From IMG/VR virus record IMGVR_UViG_3300012349_000007, positions 1-55,820 of that record: a DNA stretch of 55,820 nt; one strand, 5' to 3'. Numbering within the stretch: position 1 is the first letter of the stretch; each line of letters opens with the position of its first letter. Shown piece by piece: positions 2,960 through 52,120 of the stretch. The DNA is from a virus. Lineage: Duplodnaviria > Caudoviricetes. The translations under genes were made by a program, and so were the position numbers. The notes beneath the pieces were generated by a model that was not told the origin of the DNA, ran no database searches, and saw only the letters and a program-made list of their open reading frames with translations.

Positions 2960-4581
2960 GGGTTGGCCTCCTTCATGGGTAGATTGCCGTCTGAAGCCGT
3001 CATGGGTAGATTGCCGTCGCTGGCGGAAAGTGGCATCGTTTTGTAGTACAGGTTCGCATTCACATTTGACGGCGTAATGAAAAAGGTAGATCGTGTATTG
3101 GTGCGCGCCTGCGCTCGTATATTAAAGATGCTCCGGGCATTGGTCTGAAGCGTATTAAGCGTGGCGCTTGTCCATGATGGATGCGCCGTCATGTAATCGG
3201 TAATGGCTTTCCACGAACTCCCCGTTCCCGTTCCCAGGCTGGGACTGACGGATGCTGCCTGTAACGGCTTTTGATAATCAATCGTCCATATCCCCAGTTT
3301 CCCGACGGGGTTCGGATTTTGTGTGCGCAGCGCATCAAACATATCGGTGAGATATGGAGCTCGTGATTGGTGCTTCGCGTCGGTTGTGCCATCCGTAATC
3401 ATCACGGCCCATTGCACCGTCTCGCCGTTCGCATGCGTGAGGTTGGCAGAGGTGGACACATCTTTTTCGATGTTCCGCTGATCGATGGTAAATGCGGTTC
3501 CGCTTCTTGTGCTACAGTGCATCCATTCGTTTTTGACGATCAGATAAAAGTCGTTGCCCGAAGTTGGGAAACCCACGCCAGAAGCCACATTGAGGGTAAA
3601 CGGTGTGGCCTGCGTAGCGCTAATCGTACCGGAAAGCGTCGTTTGGACAAGCGACGTCGGATTACATACAACATCCCCCACATTCCAGCCGGTTTCCAAG
3701 ACGTAGATCGGGGTATTTTTCTGCCCCGTTGGCGCGTAGGATTGCAGGGCATTGCCGATCAACGTCAATTCTGGCGCAATGGCAACGCCTGTCGTGTCCA
3801 CCGTCGAGGTTGGATCAGGCGAAAGACGACCATCATAATAGCAGTGCGCGTCCACAAAGTCCGGGAAGTTGGCCGCCGTGATGACGCTAAAAACGTTCTG
3901 GCACCAATTTGAAATATGCGTACTTGAATTGGTTGGTGTCTTGCGCACCGAGCAAATGCCCATGAGTAGTGCCGGATTAATCGCCCTGACCGCGGGAATA
4001 GCCGCATTGGCGGTCGGCCCCAGCGCTCGTCCTGTGCGACCCGACACCGTGTCAAATTCCTCATTGCCTATCTGGATGCTTTCCACATGACCATGCCCAT
4101 GATTGCCGTCGTAGCGCGTAGCCAGGTGCTGGGCGAAACGTGAGTAGGCCTGTGGTCCTCCCAGTGTACCGCTTCCCAGCCCGACATTGGTTCCTGAGTC
4201 GTCAAAGATCAGGTAATTATCCGGTGCGTCCTGGATCGTCAACATGACGTTGATATTCGCAGCATTGAAAGCGGCTACCGCATTGTCCATCGTCTGAACA
4301 GCCGATTTGGTCGGATCGGTGTTTCCTGACGGCCCATCCCAGTAGATCGGCGTATTGGTCGGCGGCTCGCTCACCGCGCCGCCAGTAGGATTGGTTTCGT
4401 AGTTGCGCCAGCGGAATTGATAGCGCACCCACAGCCCGCCTCCAATGATATTGGAGAGCGTCGTGAGGTCGGTAATCAGGTTGGTGTCCAGCGCCCGATA
4501 CGTGGGATTGCTCACGGGCTTGCCGCCATCCTGATAATACGTGAATGCGTACGGACTGTCTTTTGTTGGGATATATGGCAT
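2956..4581 (-). CDS. virion-associated glycoside hydrolase (clan GH-A like), putative depolymerase
   Basis: IQIGNEE acid/base, FVDAHCY and IYVLETGW nucleophile motifs; tail tip location. Confidence 0.7.
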   Translation of the reverse strand: MPYIPTKDSPYAFTYYQDGGKPVSNPTYRALDTNLITDLTTLSNIIGGGLWVRYQFRWRNYETNPTGGAVSEPPTNTPIYWDGPSGNTDPTKSAVQTMDNAVAAFNAANINVMLTIQDAPDNYLIFDDSGTNVGLGSGTLGGPQAYSRFAQHLATRYDGNHGHGHVESIQIGNEEFDTVSGRTGRALGPTANAAIPAVRAINPALLMGICSVRKTPTNSSTHISNWCQNVFSVITAANFPDFVDAHCYYDGRLSPDPTSTVDTTGVAIAPELTLIGNALQSYAPTGQKNTPIYVLETGWNVGDVVCNPTSLVQTTLSGTISATQATPFTLNVASGVGFPTSGNDFYLIVKNEWMHCSTRSGTAFTIDQRNIEKDVSTSANLTHANGETVQWAVMITDGTTDAKHQSRAPYLTDMFDALRTQNPNPVGKLGIWTIDYQKPLQAASVSPSLGTGTGSSWKAITDYMTAHPSWTSATLNTLQTNARSIFNIRAQARTNTRSTFFITPSNVNANLYYKTMPLSASDGNLPMTASDGNLPMKEANP

Positions 4582-15016: not shown

Positions 15017-15217
15017 TTACTTATCCTTAGCGGCTGCTTCATCTTCTAATTGGAAGATTGCCGCCCAATCTGATATCTCATCACTCGCCATACGCGCCAG
15101 CATTTCGCGTACCGTCATGCCACCGATGGTTCTGGTGATGCGGTGGTAGAGGCCGCGCTCGGAGCCGCCTCCACTATCGTCCCCGTCGTCATCGTCTCCC
15201 CGGAAGTACTTTTTTTT
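15017..15217 (-). CDS. -1 frameshift extension of the tail chaperone (gpGT-like)
   Basis: A8 slippery run (T run 15210-15217). The -1 frame reads KYFRGDDDD...MTVREMLARMASDEISDWAAIFQLEDEAAAKDK to TAA 15019-15017. Confidence 0.85.
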   Translation of the reverse strand, partial: KKKYFRGDDDDGDDSGGGSERGLYHRITRTIGGMTVREMLARMASDEISDWAAIFQLEDEAAAKDK

Positions 15218-15693
15218 GACTCAATTTGCTCAGGGAGCAAGCCTGAAAGCCGCGAGGCCACCTGTGCCACGAGTTCGAGTACCGCGCCGGATGTCTTGTT
15301 CAAGTTGTCTCTATCCGGCAATTGGAAGATCAATTGCCCGGCCTGCGGGTCGCTGGCAACGTTCTGCATCAGTGCCATAAACTCTGGCAGGTGCGGATGC
15401 GGTATCGTGCGCGTCACTTCATCCCCGTTTTCATCAAGTTCTTTGACTTCCACCGGATCAACCACACAATCAGCATCGACATATCGCGTCGAGACAATGA
15501 CAAGATGAGGATAGAGCGTCTTCTGATTGATCTTTTTTGTCTTGAGATTGAAATTCGCCTCGATGAGCGCGCTTCGCTCTTCCCCGGTGAGCTCCTGGAC
15601 CATGACCCAGGCTTCCCATGCATCCACCCACAAGCCCTTTTTCCTGAACTTAATATCCCCGCTCAGCACTTTTTGCCGTAGATCGATAGACAT
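15115..15693 (-). CDS. tail assembly chaperone (gpG-like)
   Basis: Between tail tube and tape measure, VMVQELTGEER motif. Confidence 0.85.
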   Translation of the reverse strand: MSIDLRQKVLSGDIKFRKKGLWVDAWEAWVMVQELTGEERSALIEANFNLKTKKINQKTLYPHLVIVSTRYVDADCVVDPVEVKELDENGDEVTRTIPHPHLPEFMALMQNVASDPQAGQLIFQLPDRDNLNKTSGAVLELVAQVASRLSGLLPEQIESKKSTSGETMTTGTIVEAAPSAASTTASPEPSVA

Positions 15694-15723
15694 CGGTTAT
15701 TATTTCCCTTCAAATCATAACTT

Positions 15724-29456: not shown

Positions 29457-29738
29457 GAATTTCCTCTTTCTATCGATATGGACGAACATATGGGGGTAAT
29501 CATGGCAGGTATCCTATCACAGTCGGGGGAAATGTGGGTGGAAATATGGTGAATATTTGCGCACAAGTGGAGCGATTTCTCAACATCAGGGGAGGCAAGC
29601 GAGGATTGCATAGGAATGTCAAAGGGTGTCTCGCTTGCCGTGAGATGCATCTGCTGAGAGTGTAGCACAAGTATTCTTGAAAAATCAAGAAATATCTTGT
29701 ATAACTTAACTAGGAATGTCAAACCTCCACACAGCAGT

Positions 29739-30779
29739 ATGACCAGAAACGACGAATGGCCGCCGTTTGCCTTTGCACCTTCAGACCCATGGGGAAGGTG
29801 CTATTTGTCATTCCTTCGCAGAAAGTTTGACCGATCTGGCAGTCAAAGTACGCTCGTCCACTACCGACAGTACCTCATCCAATTCTTCACGGAGCCCGTC
29901 GCAAAAATGCCAGATCGCTATACACGCGAGGATGTTGAGGCGTTTATTCATAGTCCTGGCCGGGGACCAGGGAGAGAAGGTGATCCGCCTTCTGTCGGCC
30001 TGATGAATAATAGGCTGAGCCTGTTAAACTCGTTCTACAACTATGCTGCAAGCTATAGCATCACTGGGGAAGACGGCAGTATAGAGCCATTAATGAAACG
30101 CATGTCACCGACTGCTGGGCTAAAGCACATGCAGCGGGAGCGTCCACCGTACCGTGCGATGACGGCTAATGAATTACAGCGCTTCTTTGATGCTATCCCC
30201 AAAGACACGGTTATCGGGCTCCGCGATAGAGCGTTATTTTTGACCTATTTCTACACGGCACGCAGGCGGAGCGAGATTGTTGATTTGCGCTGGGGCGACC
30301 TCGAATATGGAACCATCATTGATGGAAACATGCGGTACAATTCGTGGATTTACCATTTTCGTGGTAAAGGGCATAAGCGTCAAGATGACTCCGCGGAGTT
30401 GCCCCTCCCAGCGAAAGTAGCGATAGATCGCTATTTGGAAGTTTCGGGTCGGAAGGACAGCATCAAATCTGAAGACCCCATTTTCACTGCTGCTGATAGG
30501 CGATACAAAAGCAATCCACCGCGACCACTTCACCCTAACACGGTGTGGCACGCGGTGAAGGTCTACGCGGCTAAGGCAGGACTTGATCCGAGGAAAGTAA
30601 CAACGCACAGTTTCAGACACACAAGTGCCAGGCGTCGTTTTGAAGCCGGTTCAACTATTCGAGAAATTCAAATCCTGCTGCGTCACTCCACCATGGCCGT
30701 GACCCATCTGTATCTTGAAGAGTCGTCAGCAGCGGACCCTGGTGCGAAACTCCTGGAAAAGCTATTCGAAGATTTGTGA
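29739..30779 (+). CDS. tyrosine recombinase, XerC/D-like (1)
   Basis: RDRAL...TARRRSE, GKG, HSFRH, LRHS, HLY catalytic set. Confidence 0.95.
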   Translation: MTRNDEWPPFAFAPSDPWGRCYLSFLRRKFDRSGSQSTLVHYRQYLIQFFTEPVAKMPDRYTREDVEAFIHSPGRGPGREGDPPSVGLMNNRLSLLNSFYNYAASYSITGEDGSIEPLMKRMSPTAGLKHMQRERPPYRAMTANELQRFFDAIPKDTVIGLRDRALFLTYFYTARRRSEIVDLRWGDLEYGTIIDGNMRYNSWIYHFRGKGHKRQDDSAELPLPAKVAIDRYLEVSGRKDSIKSEDPIFTAADRRYKSNPPRPLHPNTVWHAVKVYAAKAGLDPRKVTTHSFRHTSARRRFEAGSTIREIQILLRHSTMAVTHLYLEESSAADPGAKLLEKLFEDL

Positions 30780-34356: not shown

Positions 34357-35871
34357 ATGAATCAGCATAGTGTGAAGACCGAAGAGCAAAAGGATAACGA
34401 CAATTACGCAAAGAACTTTACACGAGTTCCTAACATTCTTTTTGAGTCGTATAAGTATCTCACCAAAGAAGAGGTGCTTCTCTACATACGGCTGCGCTAT
34501 ATCTACTGGGATACGAAGCCGCGCTATCTCTCTCTGAGAGAACTGGCAGATATAACCGGATACTCGACAGGGGCATTAAGCAAAATGCTACCGCGCCTGA
34601 CGATCGTCGGTTTAATCCATGCTGAAATCAGAAGGAAAAAGGGCAAAGACGGTAAGGAAAAAGGCAATCCCATATATCACATCACCATCAATGATATATG
34701 GGAAGAAAACCGCAAGTTCTTCACAGAAGGGCATTTTGACCCAAGTGAAGCGCTACTTGTTCACGAAATGAATGAAACCAGTTCACCAAATGAACAGGAT
34801 ACACCGAAACCAGTTCACCAAATGAACAAGCCTGTTCATAAAATGAACGACCCTGTTCACGAAACCAGACAAGATAGTTCACCAAATGAACAGGATCAAG
34901 CACAAAATAACCCACATAAGACTAATAGTAAGACTATTGATAATACTTCAACACAAGAAGAGAGTGTTACGCCCACCATTGCAGACGTGCCGGCATGTGG
35001 CGCTAACGCGCCAGCACTCTCTGCTTTGCCACTTCAAGAAAAAATGCTTGAAGAGGAAACGATCTGCTCTAAGTGTGGCAATCTTACTATCACCCCAAAT
35101 GATTGCCCTTGGTGTAAAGCGTCAAAACAAGTTTCCCTCCAAGAGAAAGGACAGACCGATGGAAGCAGCAACAATAATCATCGTCATCTCAGCAGTCTCA
35201 ATAGCCACCAACCTCTTCGTCAGCAATTGGATACTGCTGACGATACGCATGGAGCTACGCCTACTCAACAGAAAGAAGGATTAACCGATGGACATGACAG
35301 CATTCACAACCCTACTCATCTTCTGGATCATGGTAGCAATCTTAGCATTGGCACTCACAGCGATCGTCATCCTGGAAAATCGCCCGTAGCCCAACAGACA
35401 TCCACCTCCAAGCCTGTTCAGGAAGTCCCCCCACTTGCCACTTTGAGCAAGGTGCCTGAACAGGCCGCGTTGATGGCACCTGCGGAACCGAAACCGCGTG
35501 CCAGATCGGCACCGAAAAAGGCCGTAGAGAAGCCAGCGGGCCCGCCTCCAAGCGAGATGGAGTGGAGCACACGCAAATGTATGATGTTGTTCGATTTCTG
35601 GCGTGGAGCGCCACTGATCGGTACGTACAAAAACTCGCAGGCGTCCACGTGTGCGAAGGGATTAGCCGCCAACTACACCGAGCAGCAGGTAGTTGATGCG
35701 AGAACGGATATGGAAGCTGACATTTATTGGATGTCTCACGGAGGAGTAGATATCTGCGAGGTAGCGAACAACATCCACAAATATGTCAGGAAGCGCCAAC
35801 TAACTATTGTGGAGAAAGCTCCAGTGCCGGTGAAAATTGACCGCGAATACTTGAAGAGAGTGAAGCCATGA
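34357..35871 (+). CDS. replication initiator (lambda O-like, N-terminal wHTH)
   Basis: FTRVPN...LSLRELADITGYS wHTH, internal iterons, followed by DnaB. Confidence 0.85.
   Translation: MNQHSVKTEEQKDNDNYAKNFTRVPNILFESYKYLTKEEVLLYIRLRYIYWDTKPRYLSLRELADITGYSTGALSKMLPRLTIVGLIHAEIRRKKGKDGKEKGNPIYHITINDIWEENRKFFTEGHFDPSEALLVHEMNETSSPNEQDTPKPVHQMNKPVHKMNDPVHETRQDSSPNEQDQAQNNPHKTNSKTIDNTSTQEESVTPTIADVPACGANAPALSALPLQEKMLEEETICSKCGNLTITPNDCPWCKASKQVSLQEKGQTDGSSNNNHRHLSSLNSHQPLRQQLDTADDTHGATPTQQKEGLTDGHDSIHNPTHLLDHGSNLSIGTHSDRHPGKSPVAQQTSTSKPVQEVPPLATLSKVPEQAALMAPAEPKPRARSAPKKAVEKPAGPPPSEMEWSTRKCMMLFDFWRGAPLIGTYKNSQASTCAKGLAANYTEQQVVDARTDMEADIYWMSHGGVDICEVANNIHKYVRKRQLTIVEKAPVPVKIDREYLKRVKP
34759..34891. 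repeat. replication origin iterons GTTCA-N5-TGAAC
   Basis: Copies at 34759 (one mismatch), 34781, 34813, 34834, 34855 (half site) and 34877; spacing 21-22 or 32 bp; AT-rich tract follows. Confidence 0.85.
35159..35284 (+). CDS. overprinted 41 aa membrane peptide inside the initiator (+1 frame)
   Basis: AAAGGA RBS; MEAATIIIVISAVSIATNLFVSNWILLTIRMELRLLNRKKD. Confidence 0.55.
   Translation: MEAATIIIVISAVSIATNLFVSNWILLTIRMELRLLNRKKD
35288..35389 (+). CDS. overprinted 33 aa membrane peptide inside the initiator (+1 frame)
   Basis: GAAGGA RBS; MDMTAFTTLLIFWIMVAILALALTAIVILENRP. Confidence 0.55.
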   Translation: MDMTAFTTLLIFWIMVAILALALTAIVILENRP

Positions 35872-37205
35872 CCGAGAAATGGGTACCAACCAACGTGGAG
35901 GCAGAGGAAAGCGTGCTTTCTCACTTGCTCAGTGCTCCACGCAAAATCACGGAAGTGGTAGATCGTTTATCCCCTGAGCACTTCTGTTCAGATCGCGCCA
36001 GCCGTGTCTACCAACTCATGGTGACGTTAGCGCATCAGGGGAAGGCATGTACCGTCTCTAACGTCTATGATGCCTGGGCAAGAGCATATGGGGTGGACGA
36101 TGAAGTCTATGATTTTCTTGAAGACCGCTATGGCCTCTTTTCTGCATTCATGACGCCTTTTGAAGACCAGGTGGAGAAAGTCATTCGCGTGCATACCATG
36201 CGCCGTCTCATCTCAGCCGCTCAGCATATCGCAGAAGTCGCCTATGCTCAGGATGACAATGCTATGGACGTAGCCGAGCAACTTATTTACGATATTGCCA
36301 GGGGCGTAGACGGTGATACAGTGGCAACGCTGGCGCAAGTGAAGCAGCGCTACATGCAAGAGTTTGAGCAACGGCGTGAAAACCTCCTCAACGGCATAGC
36401 CAATGGCATTCCGACCGGCTTTCATGAGCTAGATGTCATCTTAGGCGGTTTGCAGCCCTCCAATCTCTATACCCTCGCAGCTCGTCCTAGCCTGGGTAAG
36501 ACAGCCCTGGCACTCAACTTTGCTCTCTACATCGCTAGACATGCCCGCCGGTGCCTGTTTTTTAGCCTGGAGATGAGTGAGTTAGAGTTATTCCAGCGCT
36601 TGCTAGCCATAGAAACGCCTGTCGATCAATCGTTCTTACGCGACGGCGATGTGAACGAGCAGGAACTTGAAGATATCCGCTACACGGCTAACGACCTGGC
36701 TGAACTCGATATGTTGATAGATGACCGAACCTATACCCTGGCTGGTATATGCAGCAAGGCCCGGCGTGAACATGCCCGCAAACCACTTAATCTCATCGTG
36801 GTTGATTACCTCCAATTGATCGATACTTCCCCGGAAGGGCGAAACAAGAACAAGATGCGCTACGAGGAAGTAGGCGAATTCTCGAAACGGTTGAAACGTC
36901 TGGCCAAAGAGTTGAAAGTGCCGGTCATTGCCATAGCGCAACTCAACCGCGACGTGGAAAGCCGACAAAGCCCAAAGCCGCGTATGTCTGATTTAGGCGA
37001 AAGTGGCAAACTTGAGCAGGATATGGACGTTGTGGCCTTCGTCTACTGCGAGGAAACTGAGCTTGCAAAAAAGGAGAACTGCGAACCGTACAAAGTCCAT
37101 GTTCACGTGGCCAAGCACCGTAATGGACGCTTAGGCGATGTCGAGTTGTGGTTCAGGCCCCGGATCACCAAATTCCAGGATGAGGAGCCGGACTATGAGC
37201 AATGA
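35868..37205 (+). CDS. dnaB: replicative DNA helicase, DnaB family
   Basis: AARPSLGKT, FSLEMS, IVVDYLQL, AQLNR, SGKLEQDMD, KHRNG. Confidence 0.97.
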   Translation: MTEKWVPTNVEAEESVLSHLLSAPRKITEVVDRLSPEHFCSDRASRVYQLMVTLAHQGKACTVSNVYDAWARAYGVDDEVYDFLEDRYGLFSAFMTPFEDQVEKVIRVHTMRRLISAAQHIAEVAYAQDDNAMDVAEQLIYDIARGVDGDTVATLAQVKQRYMQEFEQRRENLLNGIANGIPTGFHELDVILGGLQPSNLYTLAARPSLGKTALALNFALYIARHARRCLFFSLEMSELELFQRLLAIETPVDQSFLRDGDVNEQELEDIRYTANDLAELDMLIDDRTYTLAGICSKARREHARKPLNLIVVDYLQLIDTSPEGRNKNKMRYEEVGEFSKRLKRLAKELKVPVIAIAQLNRDVESRQSPKPRMSDLGESGKLEQDMDVVAFVYCEETELAKKENCEPYKVHVHVAKHRNGRLGDVELWFRPRITKFQDEEPDYEQ

Positions 37206-37509
37206 GGATTATCCGGCCATGTGCTTGAATACAGCCCATGCATTCGCCAGTCCGTTTGAAGTTGTTTTTGCTACGCGCACCGATGCCTGCTGGCTGTACT
37301 GGTGCGAGGATTGTAGGCACCGTGGACAGTTGCTGGACTGGGGGGCAAGGCATAACTGGCCTGAGATAGCGATACATCCCTACGCCGTGGCTTCGGGCAT
37401 GGACTTCTGGCAAACGGCTGTACTTCTCGGCAGTGACGATATGATCTGGATGTTTTTGGGGCTTATCGAGATGCTTGATATGGAGATACGAGAGGAAGCA
37501 AAAGTATGA
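37195..37509 (+). CDS. hypothetical Cys-containing protein
   Basis: GAGGAG RBS overlapping the dnaB end; WCEDC. Confidence 0.6.
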   Translation: MSNEDYPAMCLNTAHAFASPFEVVFATRTDACWLYWCEDCRHRGQLLDWGARHNWPEIAIHPYAVASGMDFWQTAVLLGSDDMIWMFLGLIEMLDMEIREEAKV

Positions 37510-37724
37510 CCTGGACGATCATTTTTACCATAAGCGCGTCTACCCTGCTCATCGCGGTCTTCGTAGCCGATCTGCGAACCATGCAGACCGAACACGAGAC
37601 GAAGCAGCCACCAATGGAGCTTGCCGAATTCTCCCGCGCAATGAAACAACTGGATGATTTCAGCGAGACCGAGATATGGAAACTGTACGGCGTGTATCGC
37701 CAGAGAGGAAAGGTACAGGTATGA
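37506..37724 (+). CDS. small membrane-anchored protein
   Basis: N-terminal TM helix, ATGA coupling. Confidence 0.6.
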   Translation: MTWTIIFTISASTLLIAVFVADLRTMQTEHETKQPPMELAEFSRAMKQLDDFSETEIWKLYGVYRQRGKVQV

Positions 37725-38032
37725 CCACCTACGAAGATGTGCAGCGTTTCAAAGCGCTGGCCGACCCAACGCGCTTAACCTTGTTGCAAATCATTAGCCG
37801 CGGGGACGGTCTGCTGAATGTCATTGACTTGCGAGAGAAGCTGAACGTGCAGCTAGGCCGCCGACTTTCGCAACCGACAATTTCGCATCATCTGGGCATC
37901 CTCCGAGATGCGCGACTCGTGGACTCGACGAAAGACGGCCTGGAAGCTTTTTATCGGCTTCGTAGCGATGCATTGACATGCGCGATGGAGGTCTTACGCA
38001 CGATTGCGAGAAGGCAAGAGGTAGCGGTGTAA
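37721..38032 (+). CDS. ArsR/SmtB family transcriptional regulator
   Basis: FKALADPTRL...LSQPTISHHLGILRDARLV. Confidence 0.92.
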   Translation: MTTYEDVQRFKALADPTRLTLLQIISRGDGLLNVIDLREKLNVQLGRRLSQPTISHHLGILRDARLVDSTKDGLEAFYRLRSDALTCAMEVLRTIARRQEVAV

Positions 38033-38243
38033 TGTCAACCGGCAATGAGGACATCCGACTCAGGAATGCCATTTTTAGCGGCGTAGTAATCCGTAGGGCG
38101 CCTCTAAGAGAGAGGCAGGTATATTGAGAGGTTGGAAAGAGAAGTGCCCTCTCTTGGCTGTACCAATCGCAAGAAATACGATTGAGCAAAAGAAAGGAAA
38201 ATGGGGATGACCACAAACCCACACCTGCTACGTCGCTGGCTGC

Positions 38244-38576
38244 ATGGAGCCTACGTACACCATCGGCGGCACATGCGAGAAGCACAATGCTGAATTTCGT
38301 GCCCAGTGGAAAGACGAGCATACCCGCAAGCCAGGCGACCGCCGTTCGCGTTGGCTTATCGGTGACAAGTGCCAGGTCAAGCTCGGCCAAACGACCTATG
38401 ACGCGGAAATTATCGATATGAGCGATGTAAGCCGTGCTGAGTCCAATTACGACCTGGTGCAATTGCGACTTTCCAAGACGGTGAAAGGGCTCGATGGGAA
38501 GCCTTATGCACAGACCTGGGTACATCCTGAGCCGGTACAGAGCTATCGGCTCAAAAAGGCGTTGTTGAAAGATTAG
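38244..38576 (+). CDS. hypothetical protein with SH3-like C-terminus; 5' end appears frameshifted
   Basis: Frame is open from 38211 and contains CYVAGC...CEKH, but the RBS-linked ATGs (38201, 38207) are out of frame. Confidence 0.55.
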   Translation: MEPTYTIGGTCEKHNAEFRAQWKDEHTRKPGDRRSRWLIGDKCQVKLGQTTYDAEIIDMSDVSRAESNYDLVQLRLSKTVKGLDGKPYAQTWVHPEPVQSYRLKKALLKD

Positions 38577-38654
38577 TGGCTGGCCCGAAGACCAGCCGGA
38601 GCCCGATTAAGTGGTTCAGGCTCGTATGTAGAACGAGCGGAAAGGCAAAGAACA

Positions 38655-39581
38655 ATGGCAAATCTCAATTTTTGGAAAGCATCAGATGAGCCTGGGGAAA
38701 ATGCGAAGGCAGCAGCAGGCATTATCAAGGTGATTGTGTTTCTGATTCTCATCGGAGTCGTGGTGTATAGCGAGTACATGTTCATCGGCATTATCAGTGT
38801 GATTTTGCCCGATGGTGTCAACAAAATAGGTGCCCTCATTGGCGCGGTCGCTACCGGTGCCTCTGTGTTGACGCTAGTAGCCGCTAAACTCCTCTGGATT
38901 ACTCCTGGTGGGCAAATGGTGTGGTCGTGGATATTCACCGGCTGCGAGGTGTTTATCTTGATCCTGAACGATATGCTGGCCTATGCGCTTCACTACGGCG
39001 CAGCTACTGGCATTCTCGCAGGGTGGCAGCAAATCACCCCAGCTTCGCCTGTCTTTGCCCTCATTGGCTGGATTCTTATCTTGCTCCTCGACCGAGCCCA
39101 ACGGGAGCGGCATAGAGACATGGAATTAGAAGCCAAGAAAGCGGCTGCTGAGAGAAAATACAAGGAAGCGGCCCACAGGGCTGAAATGGAACTGAGAGGC
39201 AATCACTTAAATCAAGTGACAGGCCGATTGCAAGAAGTTCTTTCCTCTGATGCTATCCAGATGCAAATCATGCGGCATGCAGAGCAGATGGTAGCGCGTG
39301 TACTCACCGATGTTTCTGGTATCACGGCCATAAACTACACGCCTACCCAACAAGCACAGATACCAGAAAAGTCTCTTGCACAACAGAGTTATGTCAAGTT
39401 ACAGGATGATCCTGTAACCAGTGCTTTGAACACAAGTTCAGTTGACCCTGAGAAGTTTGCTGACCTTATTGAAATGGCACAGCAATACGGATCACTGACA
39501 AGGGAAGAAGCTGACCCTTTACTACGGGCTCTGAGCGAGAACCAGGCCAAGACTCAGAGCAACGGACACCAACAGAAGTAG
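38655..39581 (+). CDS. four-TM membrane protein with coiled coil (short form of a frameshift gene)
   Basis: Four hydrophobic helices then a charged coiled coil; CCCTTTA slippery site near the end. Confidence 0.85.
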   Translation: MANLNFWKASDEPGENAKAAAGIIKVIVFLILIGVVVYSEYMFIGIISVILPDGVNKIGALIGAVATGASVLTLVAAKLLWITPGGQMVWSWIFTGCEVFILILNDMLAYALHYGAATGILAGWQQITPASPVFALIGWILILLLDRAQRERHRDMELEAKKAAAERKYKEAAHRAEMELRGNHLNQVTGRLQEVLSSDAIQMQIMRHAEQMVARVLTDVSGITAINYTPTQQAQIPEKSLAQQSYVKLQDDPVTSALNTSSVDPEKFADLIEMAQQYGSLTREEADPLLRALSENQAKTQSNGHQQK

Positions 39582-40066
39582 GGCCTGAAATGGAAGGTGG
39601 AGCGGGAGCAATTGATGCTCCACCTGAGACAGAAGCGGAAGTTGAGCAGGAAGAAAAGGGAGATCAAGGAGTTCCAAACACTTCGGAAGAATACCCACCT
39701 TCCGAAGTGTTTGGAGGTGATAAACCTACTCCACAACTGGACATAGAACATTATAAGAAAAAAGGCATTCATGCACGTAAGAGAAAGTATGAAAAGCCTG
39801 GAAAAGATGGTGATGCTCCTGTTCGTGATGTAGTAATCTTTCGGTATAAGATGAAACATCATCTTCCAGGCATGTCAGACGACATGGAACATTGGTACGA
39901 ATTCTGGTACTTTACCAGACCTAACCGAAAGAAGGATGGAGACAAGTATGAGCAACACCTCAGAGCCTACAACAGGGGGCAAAAGTGGATTGCCCAAGAA
40001 GAGGGAATTGAAATTGTGGGAAGTAGCCGTAAAATCATTCCATACCGTAGACAGGCGCATAGTTGA
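39515..40066 (+). CDS. -1 frame extension: acidic linker plus basic aromatic domain
   Basis: The -1 frame opens after TGA 39512-39514 exactly at CCCTTTA and includes track ORF 39590-40066, which lacks a clear RBS. Confidence 0.7.
   Translation, partial: PFTTGSEREPGQDSEQRTPTEVGPEMEGGAGAIDAPPETEAEVEQEEKGDQGVPNTSEEYPPSEVFGGDKPTPQLDIEHYKKKGIHARKRKYEKPGKDGDAPVRDVVIFRYKMKHHLPGMSDDMEHWYEFWYFTRPNRKKDGDKYEQHLRAYNRGQKWIAQEEGIEIVGSSRKIIPYRRQAHS
39673..39715. repeat. 17 bp perfect inverted repeat, copy 1
   Basis: TCCAAACACTTCGGAAG-N9-CTTCCGAAGTGTTTGGA. Confidence 0.9.
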
Positions 40067-40304
40067 TGTAGAACATGCAACTGATGAAGAGTTTCAGACA
40101 TGGATAGCATCACAAGGTATTCCAGTTGATGAAGAAGGTATTTCTGAGTGGGTTTTTGAAGATAGAGTAGGGGTGATTAATCACGCCTTACGCTTTGGGG
40201 TTAATCTCAACTTTGCCGAAGATAATCCAGTCTCAAACACTTCGACAAACGAGGATTCTTCCGAAGTGTTTGAATGCCCTACTTCCGCTTCTGAAGCCAT
40301 TTGA
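40014..40304 (+). CDS. small acidic hypothetical protein (start uncertain)
   Basis: GAGGG RBS before TTG; part of track ORF 39936-40304. Confidence 0.55.
   Translation: MWEVAVKSFHTVDRRIVDVEHATDEEFQTWIASQGIPVDEEGISEWVFEDRVGVINHALRFGVNLNFAEDNPVSNTSTNEDSSEVFECPTSASEAI
40233..40273. repeat. inverted repeat, copy 2
   Basis: TCAAACACTTCG-N17-CGAAGTGTTTGA, same core and spacing as copy 1. Confidence 0.85.
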
Positions 40305-40365
40305 AAGAATATAGTAGTAGGGGTAACAATGGTATTCCTACTACTAACCAATAAAGGAGTCCTGT

Positions 40366-41118
40366 ATGTATACCTACACATTGTCTTATCCTGAAGATTA
40401 CCTTGAGCTAGAGAAAGCAGGTACCATCTTCTATGTGGGTAAGGGAACGGGTAATAGGATACATCAGCATGAGAGGGAGGCTAGAAGGGGCGGGAAAGGC
40501 TATAAGTGTAACGTTATCCGCAAGATAGAAGCTTTGGGAGGAAAGGTTGTCAAAAAGATACTTGCCCACTTCAGCACACATAAAGAGGCTACTTGGTATG
40601 AAATAGCGTTAATCTTTTTTCTGCCTAATTTAACGAACTTAACATTAGGCGGTGATGGTTTAGTAGGCTATGTCATGACCACAGAGCACAAAACAAACAT
40701 AGGCAAGTCGATTAAGGTCTATACCCGTACTGAAGAGGAAAAGAAGCATTTAGCAGTACTTCGTACTGGCAAAACCACTTCTGCTGAGACACGAATAAGG
40801 CAGGGCATAGCTCATCAAGAGTTAACCCATACTGAGGAGGCAAAGCGGAAAATTCAAGTTGCTAATACGGGACGCAAAATGCCGAAAGAAGCCATTGAAA
40901 GGCGCATATTGATTATGGAAGGGAAGCCAAGGATCATCAATCACTCAGGGAGAACCTATTCGGGGCTCATTGCGCCTAATGGTCAACAGTACGATAACAT
41001 CACCAATCTTACAGCATTTTGTAGAGAACATGGGTTACAACAACCTCAATTAAATCTGGTTGCAAATGGTAAGCGAAAATCATATAAGGGTTGGCATTTG
41101 CGACAAGAGGGAGCATAG
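40366..41118 (+). CDS. GIY-YIG homing endonuclease with NUMOD3-like repeats
   Basis: YTYTL...FYVGKG...RI..H, HTEEAKRKI repeats, C-terminal FCREHGL...KGW. Confidence 0.9.
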   Translation: MYTYTLSYPEDYLELEKAGTIFYVGKGTGNRIHQHEREARRGGKGYKCNVIRKIEALGGKVVKKILAHFSTHKEATWYEIALIFFLPNLTNLTLGGDGLVGYVMTTEHKTNIGKSIKVYTRTEEEKKHLAVLRTGKTTSAETRIRQGIAHQELTHTEEAKRKIQVANTGRKMPKEAIERRILIMEGKPRIINHSGRTYSGLIAPNGQQYDNITNLTAFCREHGLQQPQLNLVANGKRKSYKGWHLRQEGA

Positions 41119-50468: not shown

Positions 50469-51398
50469 ATGGATGGCCTTGTTCCCTATCAGCAACAGCG
50501 TATAGAGCAATCAATTGTAGACGTTTTAAAGATCCTTGATAGCAAGGAGTCAAAGCGAGTCTACAATCTTGATATTGCCTACTTTGCTGAGTGGATGAAA
50601 GAAAAGCACCTGACTTACCAATCTGTGACTACCTCAGATATTATCGCTTATCGTGAGCTGCTAGGGCAGACATTTAAGAAAGCTACATCGCAACGCATGT
50701 TTTCAGTTATTCGACGTCTTTTTAAGATGCTTGTTAGTCGAGGTGTGCGAACTGATGACCCTATCACGGATGTAAAGGGTTTCAAGCTTGCTAATGAGAG
50801 TACCCATATAGCTCTGAGCAAAAAGCAAGCAGAAAATCTATTAGACTCAATTGATACAAGCAGCCCAAAGGGCAAGCGTGATTATGCATTACTATCTCTC
50901 CTTTTACGGACTGGCATCCGACGCTCTGAATGTGCTGCATTGAATATAGGCGACTTAAGTACAGAGGAGGGATATCATATTGCCACTATCCAACATGGAA
51001 AAGGAGATAAACGGCGTATCGTGAAAATACCTGTAGACGTCTTTCGCTCCTTAGAGAGATATATACAAGCCTCTGGTAGAACTATAACATCACTGGATAA
51101 CCCGCTCTTTATCGGTTTTGATAGACGTCCTGAGTATGAAAGCCAACGCATTAGCGAGAAGGTGATAGAGCGTGTGGTTAGAGAATATGGTAAAAATATT
51201 GGCTTCTTACCTCCAAAGAGGCTTACCCCTCACGATTTGCGGACGTCGTTTATCACACTCTCAAGGGAAGGTGGAGCTACCTTAGAGCAGAGGCAATTTG
51301 CAGCAGGTCATTCAGACCCGCGCACAACACAACGCTATGATGTCCGCAAACTAAACCTAGACCATAATGCAGTAGATTATATTCACTTGTGGGAGTAA
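50469..51398 (+). CDS. tyrosine recombinase, XerC/D-like resolvase (2)
   Basis: RDYAL...TGIRRSE, GKG, PHDLR, AGHSDPRTTQRY. Confidence 0.95.
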   Translation: MDGLVPYQQQRIEQSIVDVLKILDSKESKRVYNLDIAYFAEWMKEKHLTYQSVTTSDIIAYRELLGQTFKKATSQRMFSVIRRLFKMLVSRGVRTDDPITDVKGFKLANESTHIALSKKQAENLLDSIDTSSPKGKRDYALLSLLLRTGIRRSECAALNIGDLSTEEGYHIATIQHGKGDKRRIVKIPVDVFRSLERYIQASGRTITSLDNPLFIGFDRRPEYESQRISEKVIERVVREYGKNIGFLPPKRLTPHDLRTSFITLSREGGATLEQRQFAAGHSDPRTTQRYDVRKLNLDHNAVDYIHLWE

Positions 51399-52120
51399 AC
51401 GATCAGATGCTACAAAACCTAGGAACTGGAAAATGTGACACTTGTTTAGAAAGCCCTCGCCCTTTGTTTTCGTTTCATCAGGAATGCGTTTATGTTCGTA
51501 ACCCTGGTGAGGGGAGATATTGCCCTGCTTGCATTCTCACTTTTCAACAGGAATGTGATGTACCTCCGCGTGAATGGTTACGCCGTTGTGATGATTGCTT
51601 TACGTATATGGCATTCAAAGACCTTCTGCGGCATGAGCGGATAAAACATCGATGGTGGGGTTTTTGTCCTGACTGCATGGCAAAACAAATCAGGCGGAAT
51701 AGCCTTACCTGTGTAGTATGCGGTGAGTCCACACTTGAATATACATACCTTTCTCGTATCCATTCTACATGCGAGAAATGCTATGTGCATTCACCAAAGT
51801 TAGCGGTAGTCATGTATCATAATAGCAGAGCAAAAGCATTGAACTTGCCTGCTACACTGACAACAGAGCAATGGGAACAAGCTATAAAACATTTCAATCA
51901 TCGTTGTGCTTATTGTCCTGACGGGCCTTATGAAGTACTAGAACATTTTTTACCTTTATGTCTTGGAGGTGGTACAGTAGCAAATAACTGTGTGCCTGCT
52001 TGCCATTCCTGTAATGTTCGTAAGAAGGATAAGCACCCTAACGACTTCAGCAGATTGTTTCCGGCTTCGAACATCGCTCGTATCACGGCGTATCTGGCTC
52101 AGCACGTTGGCGTGCTATAA
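51389..52120 (+). CDS. HNH endonuclease with multiple N-terminal CxxC motifs
   Basis: CAYC...EHFLPLCLGG...NCVPACHSCNVRK. Confidence 0.85.
   Translation: MGVNDQMLQNLGTGKCDTCLESPRPLFSFHQECVYVRNPGEGRYCPACILTFQQECDVPPREWLRRCDDCFTYMAFKDLLRHERIKHRWWGFCPDCMAKQIRRNSLTCVVCGESTLEYTYLSRIHSTCEKCYVHSPKLAVVMYHNSRAKALNLPATLTTEQWEQAIKHFNHRCAYCPDGPYEVLEHFLPLCLGGGTVANNCVPACHSCNVRKKDKHPNDFSRLFPASNIARITAYLAQHVGVL

Follow-up and report, generated by a model that had tools for sequence, protein, structure and literature searches.

The tau/gamma frameshift of E. coli dnaX combines the slippery sequence A AAA AAG with an upstream Shine–Dalgarno (SD)-like element and a downstream hairpin. Membrane proteins that act on DNA are represented by the Spd spread proteins of Streptomyces plasmids, multi-pass membrane proteins of a mobile element that are thought to handle DNA at the membrane, and by the phi29 protein p16.7, in which an N-terminal membrane anchor is followed by a helical oligomerization region and a cytoplasmic C-terminal part. 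In passages of PMC4974454, p16.7 is described as an integral membrane protein that organizes membrane-associated phage DNA replication. Passages of a 2016 recoding review describe the -1 frameshift of phage lambda G/GT and the tail chaperones as conserved in tailed phages despite low protein similarity, and place phage frameshifts in tail chaperones, capsid proteins, and tail (decoration) proteins (PMC5009743). Here, we analyze two adjoining open reading frames (ORFs), ORF1 and ORF2, on a 55,820 bp stretch of soil phage DNA (hereafter, the window), which comprises the whole of the IMG/VR virus record IMGVR_UViG_3300012349_000007 with an estimated completeness of 99%, and we propose that the two frames are very probably connected by programmed -1 ribosomal frameshifting in its classical bacterial form. 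The mechanism is a textbook one; the gene class is unusual, being non-structural, membrane-anchored, and located in the replication/early region of the phage. A search of accessible literature text, with supplements and subscription journals outside its scope, found no frameshift in a phage membrane or replication-module gene, and the word "membrane" has 0 occurrences in the PRFect paper (PMC10885494).

ORF1 occupies positions 38655-39581, ends at a TAG, and encodes a zero-frame product of 308 aa; ORF2 (39590-40066) lies in its -1 frame, and all coding and recoding features of this locus given below are on the plus strand. The slippery heptamer C CCT TTA is located at 39515-39521 in the correct phase (P288, L289), the zero frame around the site reading ...GCT GAC CCT TTA CTA CGG GCT CTG AGC..., and no other X XXY YYZ is in phase anywhere along the 334 codons that ORF1 spans from stop to stop. 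Candidate stimulators are found on both sides: An SD-like AGGGAAG (39501-39507) lies 7 nt upstream, and a hairpin (39528-39560) with an 8-bp stem (GCUCUGAG/CUCAGAGC) and a 17-nt loop begins after the 6-nt spacer CTACGG, within the 5-9 nt downstream at which a stimulatory structure is expected. In this hairpin, which is present in the minimum free energy fold of a 101-nt segment, the arm GCTCTGAG (39528-39535) pairs with CTCAGAGC (39553-39560). A TGA (39512-39514) closes the -1 frame immediately 5' of the slip site, an arrangement that recurs in one homologous locus (L018), and from the first base of the heptamer (39515) the -1 frame remains open up to the TGA at 40064-40066; the portion read after the slip (39521-40066) comprises 181 codons and a stop. 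An earlier sequence-only reading of the locus had claimed the heptamer, the SD-like element, the stem with its spacer, the TGA, and the open frame, all of which we located where it had placed them, and its estimate of 308 aa and about 470 aa for the two products agrees with our computation, in which a tandem slip would yield 289 (ORF1) + 181 (-1 frame) = 470 aa. Two Logan assemblies carry 38600-40400 without an indel and are possibly the source of the window DNA, hence they do not count as independent support. The sequencing runs listed as containing the stretch comprise two soil DNA runs, likewise a possible source, and no RNA run.

These signals suggest the following course of translation. 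Most ribosomes would read ORF1 up to its TAG, thereby producing the 308-aa protein, in which four transmembrane helices precede a long coiled-coil-like helix. A certain share of the ribosomes would pause on C CCU UUA owing to the hairpin 6 nt downstream, perhaps aided by the upstream AGGGAAG: The Pro and Leu tRNAs would re-pair one base back (CCC UUU), and reading would go on in the -1 frame to 40066. The resulting minor form of 470 aa would carry the same membrane anchor, to which are added a flexible, acidic linker of 72 aa, the basic motif KKKGxxxRKRKYE, and an aromatic-rich domain of three helices. The host ribosome would appear to support such slip sites, since the tail-chaperone genes of the phage itself use a canonical -1 slip: In the tail-assembly-chaperone pair at 15017-15696 (minus strand), just upstream of a 1044-aa tape-measure-like gene, where a canonical frameshift is expected, the G gene ends in ...GAG TCA AAA AAA AGT, which contains an in-phase A AAA AAA, and its T portion runs on in the -1 frame (VKKKYFRGDDD...).

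The evidence that carries this interpretation comes from homologous loci. Pattern scans with the ORF1 alignment yielded L001-L011 and scans with the ORF2 alignment L012-L018; a scan with another part of ORF2 (five sequences) gave 4/27 matches, all on contigs already in the set. The comparison was made on nine loci, namely the window and the eight uncultivated soil phage or metagenome contigs with an ORF2 homolog (L007 and L012-L018). In all nine, ORF2 is in the -1 frame of a multi-pass membrane-protein gene directly upstream, with overlapping open frames ((1/3)^8 = 1.5e-4), and ORF2 identity between loci is only 26-50%. An in-phase heptamer lies inside the short overlap zone of eight loci: CCCTTTA in the window, L012, L016, and L017, AAACCCT in L007 and L013 (where the ORF1 stop follows directly or one codon later), AAAAAAA in L015, and CCCAAAA followed by TAA in L014. 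Taken together, the overlap zones hold 9 in-phase heptamers in 186 codons versus 10 in the 2643 remaining codons of these genes (Fisher p = 1e-6), and the chance that at least eight of nine zones hold a heptamer is 1.5e-9; these statistics treat the loci as independent, which they are not fully. An upstream SD-like element was recognized by eye in three of the nine loci, as AGGGAAG in the window and as GGAGGA 6 nt upstream of the site in L007 and L013, with nothing obvious in the other six.

Moreover, the membrane protein in front of the slip site is of more than one kind. It belongs to the ORF1 family in the window, L007, L012, L013, L015, and L018, is of a second kind in L016, and of a third kind in L014 and L017, where the two proteins are 58% identical to each other; hhalign of the ORF1 profile against the L016 or L017 upstream protein found no similarity (probability ~1%), and all nine upstream proteins have 3-5 hydrophobic segments. 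That the module is attached to three unrelated anchors shows that phase and frame survived no fewer than three separate joins, and it speaks for selection on the fusion itself. At the DNA level, an alignment of the window, L016, and L012 displays no similarity upstream of CCCTTTA, and clear similarity that starts exactly at the heptamer and runs downstream, so that the slip site constitutes the 5' edge of a conserved module. L016 stems from a close relative of the window phage: The small neighbor genes are clearly homologous (L016 2012-3249 versus window 37506-38576), yet its membrane protein is unrelated to ORF1, and the anchor seems to have been exchanged through a recombination event located exactly at the heptamer.

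A hairpin starts 3-6 nt after the site in eight of the nine loci, so that the conserved site and stem for which the sequence-only reading had proposed to look in homologs are both found, together with the -1 frame in every locus. The stems fall into three classes, which are GCUCUR..YAGAGC (window, L007, L013, L015, L018), UCCCC..GGGG (L012, L016), and a 10-bp stem CGCUUCUCUG..CAGAGAAGCG (L017). In an alignment of the five GCUCUR loci, 95% of 40 cells pair, and both partners are altered in three of the eight pairs (G-C to A-U at the sixth); when the partner was slid by 1-3 columns as a control, pairing fell to 20-42%. As the stem sequence differs between the classes while its place is the same, it is the position and existence of the stem that are kept. 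The loops of the five GCUCUR-class hairpins (39536-39552 in the window) have GG(Y)CCAR in common, with CCA invariant in the alignment. The CAGGCC of the window loop could pair with GGCCUG (39583-39588), which lies 22 nt downstream of the stem and is also kept as a word (GCCTGA) in L016 and L012; formation of a pseudoknot between the loop and GGCCUG is possible.

Several observations weigh against a programmed frameshift. L018 has no canonical heptamer but only C CCT TCC, and L014 is without a convincing hairpin (z +0.39). Taken singly, the hairpins outperform shuffled sequences only by a modest margin (z -0.8 to -2.5), and the 101-nt segment of the window has no advantage over its shuffles in folding (z -0.28). 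From the heptamer onward the loci are related by descent, so that nine loci do not equal nine independent events; the minimum is three, corresponding to the anchor families. A natural in-frame ORF1-ORF2 fusion, which had been suggested at the outset as a sign of a joint product, did not turn up among the 49 ORF2 relatives in a library of 1.84 billion proteins. Finally, an ATG stands 8 nt past the ORF1 stop in the window (39590-39592, the first canonical start in the -1 frame) and in L012, preceded in the window by GTAGGG, so that free ORF2 might arise by reinitiation, with this ATG as a secondary entry, or by independent initiation.

This last point leads to the question of whether ORF1 and ORF2 are simply two ordinary genes, with ORF2 (158 aa) made only from ATG 39590, independently or by termination-reinitiation, and with an incidental heptamer and hairpin. 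Such an arrangement would agree with the ATG, GTG, or TTG that is found within ~30 nt after the ORF1 stop in seven of the nine loci, and with the fact that gene callers filed the ORF2 relatives, of 67-310 aa, as stand-alone proteins. The GTAGGG 6 nt before ATG 39590 resembles the purine-rich leaders of several other genes of the phage, and the previous claim that this ATG has no clear ribosome-binding site proved weaker than stated and says little: A strict SD core (GGAG/GAGG/AGGA) is present upstream of only 19 of 39 long genes of this phage, which is why a missing ribosome-binding site carries little weight. A conserved start for ORF2, which the sequence-only reading had named as an argument against frameshifting, was nevertheless not found. 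The conserved domain of L018 begins by 3923, and the ORF2 frame there offers its earliest ATG/GTG/TTG at 4136, some way into this domain, so that no canonical start precedes it; in L014 the first candidate start follows 123 nt past the ORF1 stop; and the ATG of the window, kept at the same place in L012, is an ATC in L016. Judged from these loci, ORF2 has no conserved start of its own. In addition, the -1-frame peptide between the heptamer and the window's ATG is alike in the window, L016, and L012 (PF..S...V.PE/D..), and because this stretch is without a start codon in the window, the similarity fits translation of the stretch itself. Two ordinary genes would further leave unexplained the -1 frame in nine of nine loci, the in-phase heptamers in eight of nine (P = 1.5e-9), the position-specific hairpins, and the DNA conservation from the heptamer onward. 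We regard exclusive initiation at this ATG as improbable; some free ORF2 could be produced via reinitiation, which is compatible with a frameshift.

A fused product could in principle also originate from slippage of the RNA polymerase, by which a base is added or dropped and the edited mRNA encodes the fusion. Runs of eight-A length can support transcriptional slippage, and a run of eight A is present at the L015 site, as is an A8 at the tail-chaperone site of this phage. The runs of only 3-4 identical bases in CCCTTTA, AAACCCT, and CCCAAAA, however, are too short for this, and a hairpin 5-6 nt downstream is a hallmark of the ribosomal mechanism; we consider polymerase slippage highly improbable. 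Slighter still is the chance that one ancestral gene was broken by a one-base indel, be it as a pseudogene or as an assembly error, in which case only the short product would be made. The frame break does lie within a seemingly single architecture, and relatives without ORF2 possess in-frame acidic and basic tails, but the same -1 break recurs at a slippery site in nine contigs from different samples with 26-50% identical ORF2, none of the 49 relatives displays an in-frame version, and two assemblies match the window base for base (although these may be the source of the window). Programmed -1 ribosomal frameshifting is the explanation that we prefer.

The short and the long protein would share the membrane part of ORF1, for which an AlphaFold2 model of low confidence (predicted local distance difference test, pLDDT, 62) contains four long hydrophobic helices (~residues 15-144), a long helix (147-221), a disordered stretch, and a short helical tail. 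Its ten homologs have 235-390 aa and are 40-76% identical over the aligned part, with divergent C-terminal tails. The closer homologs P0003-P0011 are 49-76% identical, and x-Pro-Leu dipeptides close to the C-terminal ends of P0003, P0005, P0008, and P0009 would predict CCCTTTA sites there. The transframe extension begins with an acidic linker (39521-39736; 72 aa, 19 D+E, isoelectric point, pI, 4.05) that is predicted to be disordered (pLDDT <60) and continues with a basic, aromatic-rich part of 109 aa (25 K+R, 14 W/Y/F, pI 9.75); composition and pI hence bear out the acidic linker and the K/R/W/Y-rich domain that had been read from the sequence. The basic part contains the motif YKKKGIHARKRKYEKPGKDG (39752-39811; family consensus KKKGxVGRQRKYEE) and, at ORF2 residues 78-138 (39821-40003), a domain that AlphaFold with a 22-row alignment models as three helices (pLDDT >90), the remainder being disordered. 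The residues S96, M99, Y103, Y107, F108, P111, H123, R129, and W133 of this three-helix domain are invariant.

A search of 1.84 billion cluster representatives brought up 48 further ORF2 relatives at E <= 1e-3, with 41 matches at E <= 1e-10; the conserved part is always C-terminal, behind variable proline-/glutamate-rich extensions, and a hydrophobic N-terminus is absent from all 20 relatives inspected. One candidate for an in-frame fusion of the ORF1 tail with ORF2, P0028, was rejected (hhalign probability 0.1%). ORF2 has no match in Pfam, PHROG, NCBIfam, PADLOC, PDB sequences, or known folds: With ORF1, ORF2, and ORF3 (a further frame behind ORF2, see below), Pfam, PHROGs, NCBIfam, and PADLOC returned sub-threshold hits only (DUF7680, E 0.0074; PHROG "tail protein", E 0.18; SepX/GlpR, E 0.028; GYF in 2/22 members), the ORF2 profile had 0 matches among PDB sequences at E <= 1 and the ORF3 profile just 3 (E 0.5-0.7), Foldseek of the ORF2 model against PDB and BFVD found nothing at E <= 0.001, and the best ESM Atlas score was 0.78, which is under the meaningful level. 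Rfam yielded nothing near the gathering score, and only chance hairpin-type matches on the palindrome described below. The structure prediction that had been recommended for the extension has thus provided a confident three-helix domain without a fold match, and we class ORF2, as modeled, as an orphan family. A tblastn search of ORF1 and ORF2 against the 50,697 phage records of a cultured-phage collection detected no relative, and pattern scans of representative bacterial and archaeal genomes gave 0 relatives among 50 (ORF1) and 24 (ORF2) pattern matches.

What might the long form do? According to the model, the membrane helices are even in number and a basic stretch follows the fourth of them, which would place the extension in the cytoplasm; the long helix suggests oligomers, and the efficiency of slipping would determine the proportion in which they combine short and long chains, as in lambda G/GT. 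ORF1 relatives without ORF2 (L001-L006, L008-L010) have 345-419 aa and possess long in-frame tails in which an acidic stretch is followed by a basic terminus (...KRKGKGGRKxKxVTRREVLGxE...), that is, the charge layout of the frameshift extension without recoding and without the three-helix domain; a cytoplasmic acidic-then-basic tail seems to be a trait of the ORF1 family. The likeness of these in-frame basic tails to the basic motif of ORF2 was not significant (18 columns, E 0.017, probability 2.7%).

The context of the locus points to nucleic-acid handling by virtue of two features, a pair of palindromes and ORF3. A perfect 17-bp inverted repeat (TCCAAACACTTCGGAAG, 9-nt gap, complement) is located at 39673-39715 within the linker coding region, and a second inverted repeat of the same motif with 12-bp arms follows 559 bp downstream at 40233-40273, at the end of ORF3; their four half-sites are the only close matches to the motif in the window. 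Clusters of the motif (AAYAHTTCS; core AAACAMTTCGG) are present at two corresponding positions, with a spacing of ~530-560 bp, in the window, L016 (4048-4093, 4626-4661), L012 (4061-4087, 4599-4613), L007 (5233-5244, 5783-5810), L018 (3977-4003, 4470-4514), and L014 (2978-3037, 3558-3581); L017 has the motif once, L013 has the variant palindrome CTCCAAACAAGTC, and no clusters were found beside the ORF1 relatives without ORF2. The clusters, which are probably sites of protein binding, bracket the ORF2 domain and ORF3 and lie in coding sequence, where they read as NNSE/NTSE and ELFE/EVF; the unusual "NNSE" and "ELFE" peptides that most ORF2 relatives carry in their linkers are accounted for by the motif. 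ORF3 (40014-40304), whose start is uncertain (TTG 40008 or 40014 behind GAGGGA, or ATG 39948), has a homolog after ORF2 in all nine loci, always in the +1 frame and overlapping the last 15-40 codons of ORF2; it bears the motif DVEHAxDxEF...W.FEDRxGVINxAL, both frames look conserved in the overlap, and it matches no family in Pfam, PHROGs, NCBIfam, or PADLOC. A complex prediction for the ORF2 domain with ORF3 scored 0.02.

From these features, a membrane tether of DNA formed by the long form is a reasonable guess, with the palindrome pair on either side of the ORF2 domain and ORF3 as its most probable target. Stated more generally, the long form may retain, at the membrane, a nucleic acid or else a partner protein from the phage replication module, an assignment that we make only tentatively; ORF3 would be one candidate for such a partner. 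Indirect hints at DNA binding come from the basic domain (pI 9.75) and the conserved palindromes next to it. A bolder and rather unlikely version is that, through the frameshift, plain and DNA-binding subunits enter a membrane oligomer in a fixed ratio, and that this oligomer would clamp the genome to the membrane via the two palindrome clusters and thereby act as a recoding-controlled tethering or partition device. If true, this would constitute an undescribed genome-tethering/partition device of temperate soil phages, in the form of a portable cassette (slip site, linker, domain, ORF3, sites) that is placed behind unrelated membrane anchors. Cell-to-cell spread, which had been raised as another option, is not indicated by any result of the present analysis.

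The genome is arranged in two halves, with structural genes, including the tail-chaperone pair, on the minus strand in the left half and early and replication genes on the plus strand in the right half. The latter comprises a 504-aa ORF followed by a DnaB-type helicase (35868-37205), an ArsR-type helix-turn-helix protein, the ORF1/ORF2 locus, and a GIY-YIG endonuclease gene; two tyrosine recombinases are also encoded in the window, away from the locus. In Pfam searches, the GIY-YIG/NUMOD3 endonuclease gene, which adjoins the ORF1/ORF2 locus on its downstream side, was assigned to 40366-41118, and the two tyrosine-recombinase genes and an HNH endonuclease gene to 29697-30779, 50469-51398, and 51389-52120.

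Beyond this phage, the case provides a clean natural system in which slippage at C CCU UUA and A AAC CCU can be studied together with simple hairpins, and a handle on an orphan protein family that may link phage DNA to the membrane. It also illustrates that gene callers split such genes, all 49 relatives being filed as stand-alone proteins.

Compared with the described systems, the locus combines familiar elements in a different setting. With lambda G/GT it has in common a -1 slip at X XXY YYZ close to the gene's 3' end, which would give short and C-terminally extended products with a common N-terminal part; here, however, the protein is a multi-pass membrane protein of the replication/early region and not one of virion assembly, the extension consists of an acidic linker and a basic three-helix domain, and a conserved hairpin stimulator is present in most loci. 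The three-part layout of the window (SD-like element 7 nt upstream, heptamer, stem-loop after 6 nt), the replication-related locus, and the two forms in a ratio are reminiscent of dnaX, whereas the dnaX shift truncates and the shift proposed here extends by 181 aa, the SD-like element is confined to three of nine loci, and there is no sequence relationship. The Spd proteins, which had served as the initial analogy, differ in that the present phage is a tailed one of temperate type that carries integrase genes, without any sign of intramycelial spread; neither ORF1 nor ORF2 has a Pfam or NCBIfam match above the cut-off in this comparison, which was made without an Spd reference sequence, and to our knowledge no frameshift has been described for Spd genes. 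The structure of the p16.7 C-domain is in the PDB, and homology of ORF2 to it is not indicated, given 0 PDB sequence matches at E <= 1 and no Foldseek match in the PDB at E <= 0.001. Moreover, p16.7 has one membrane helix and is made without recoding. In its logic, p16.7, an early phage protein composed of a membrane anchor, a helical region, and a cytoplasmic part that keeps DNA or replication proteins at the membrane, would nevertheless be comparable to the predicted 470-aa form, and by this analogy it is the model that we favor for that form.

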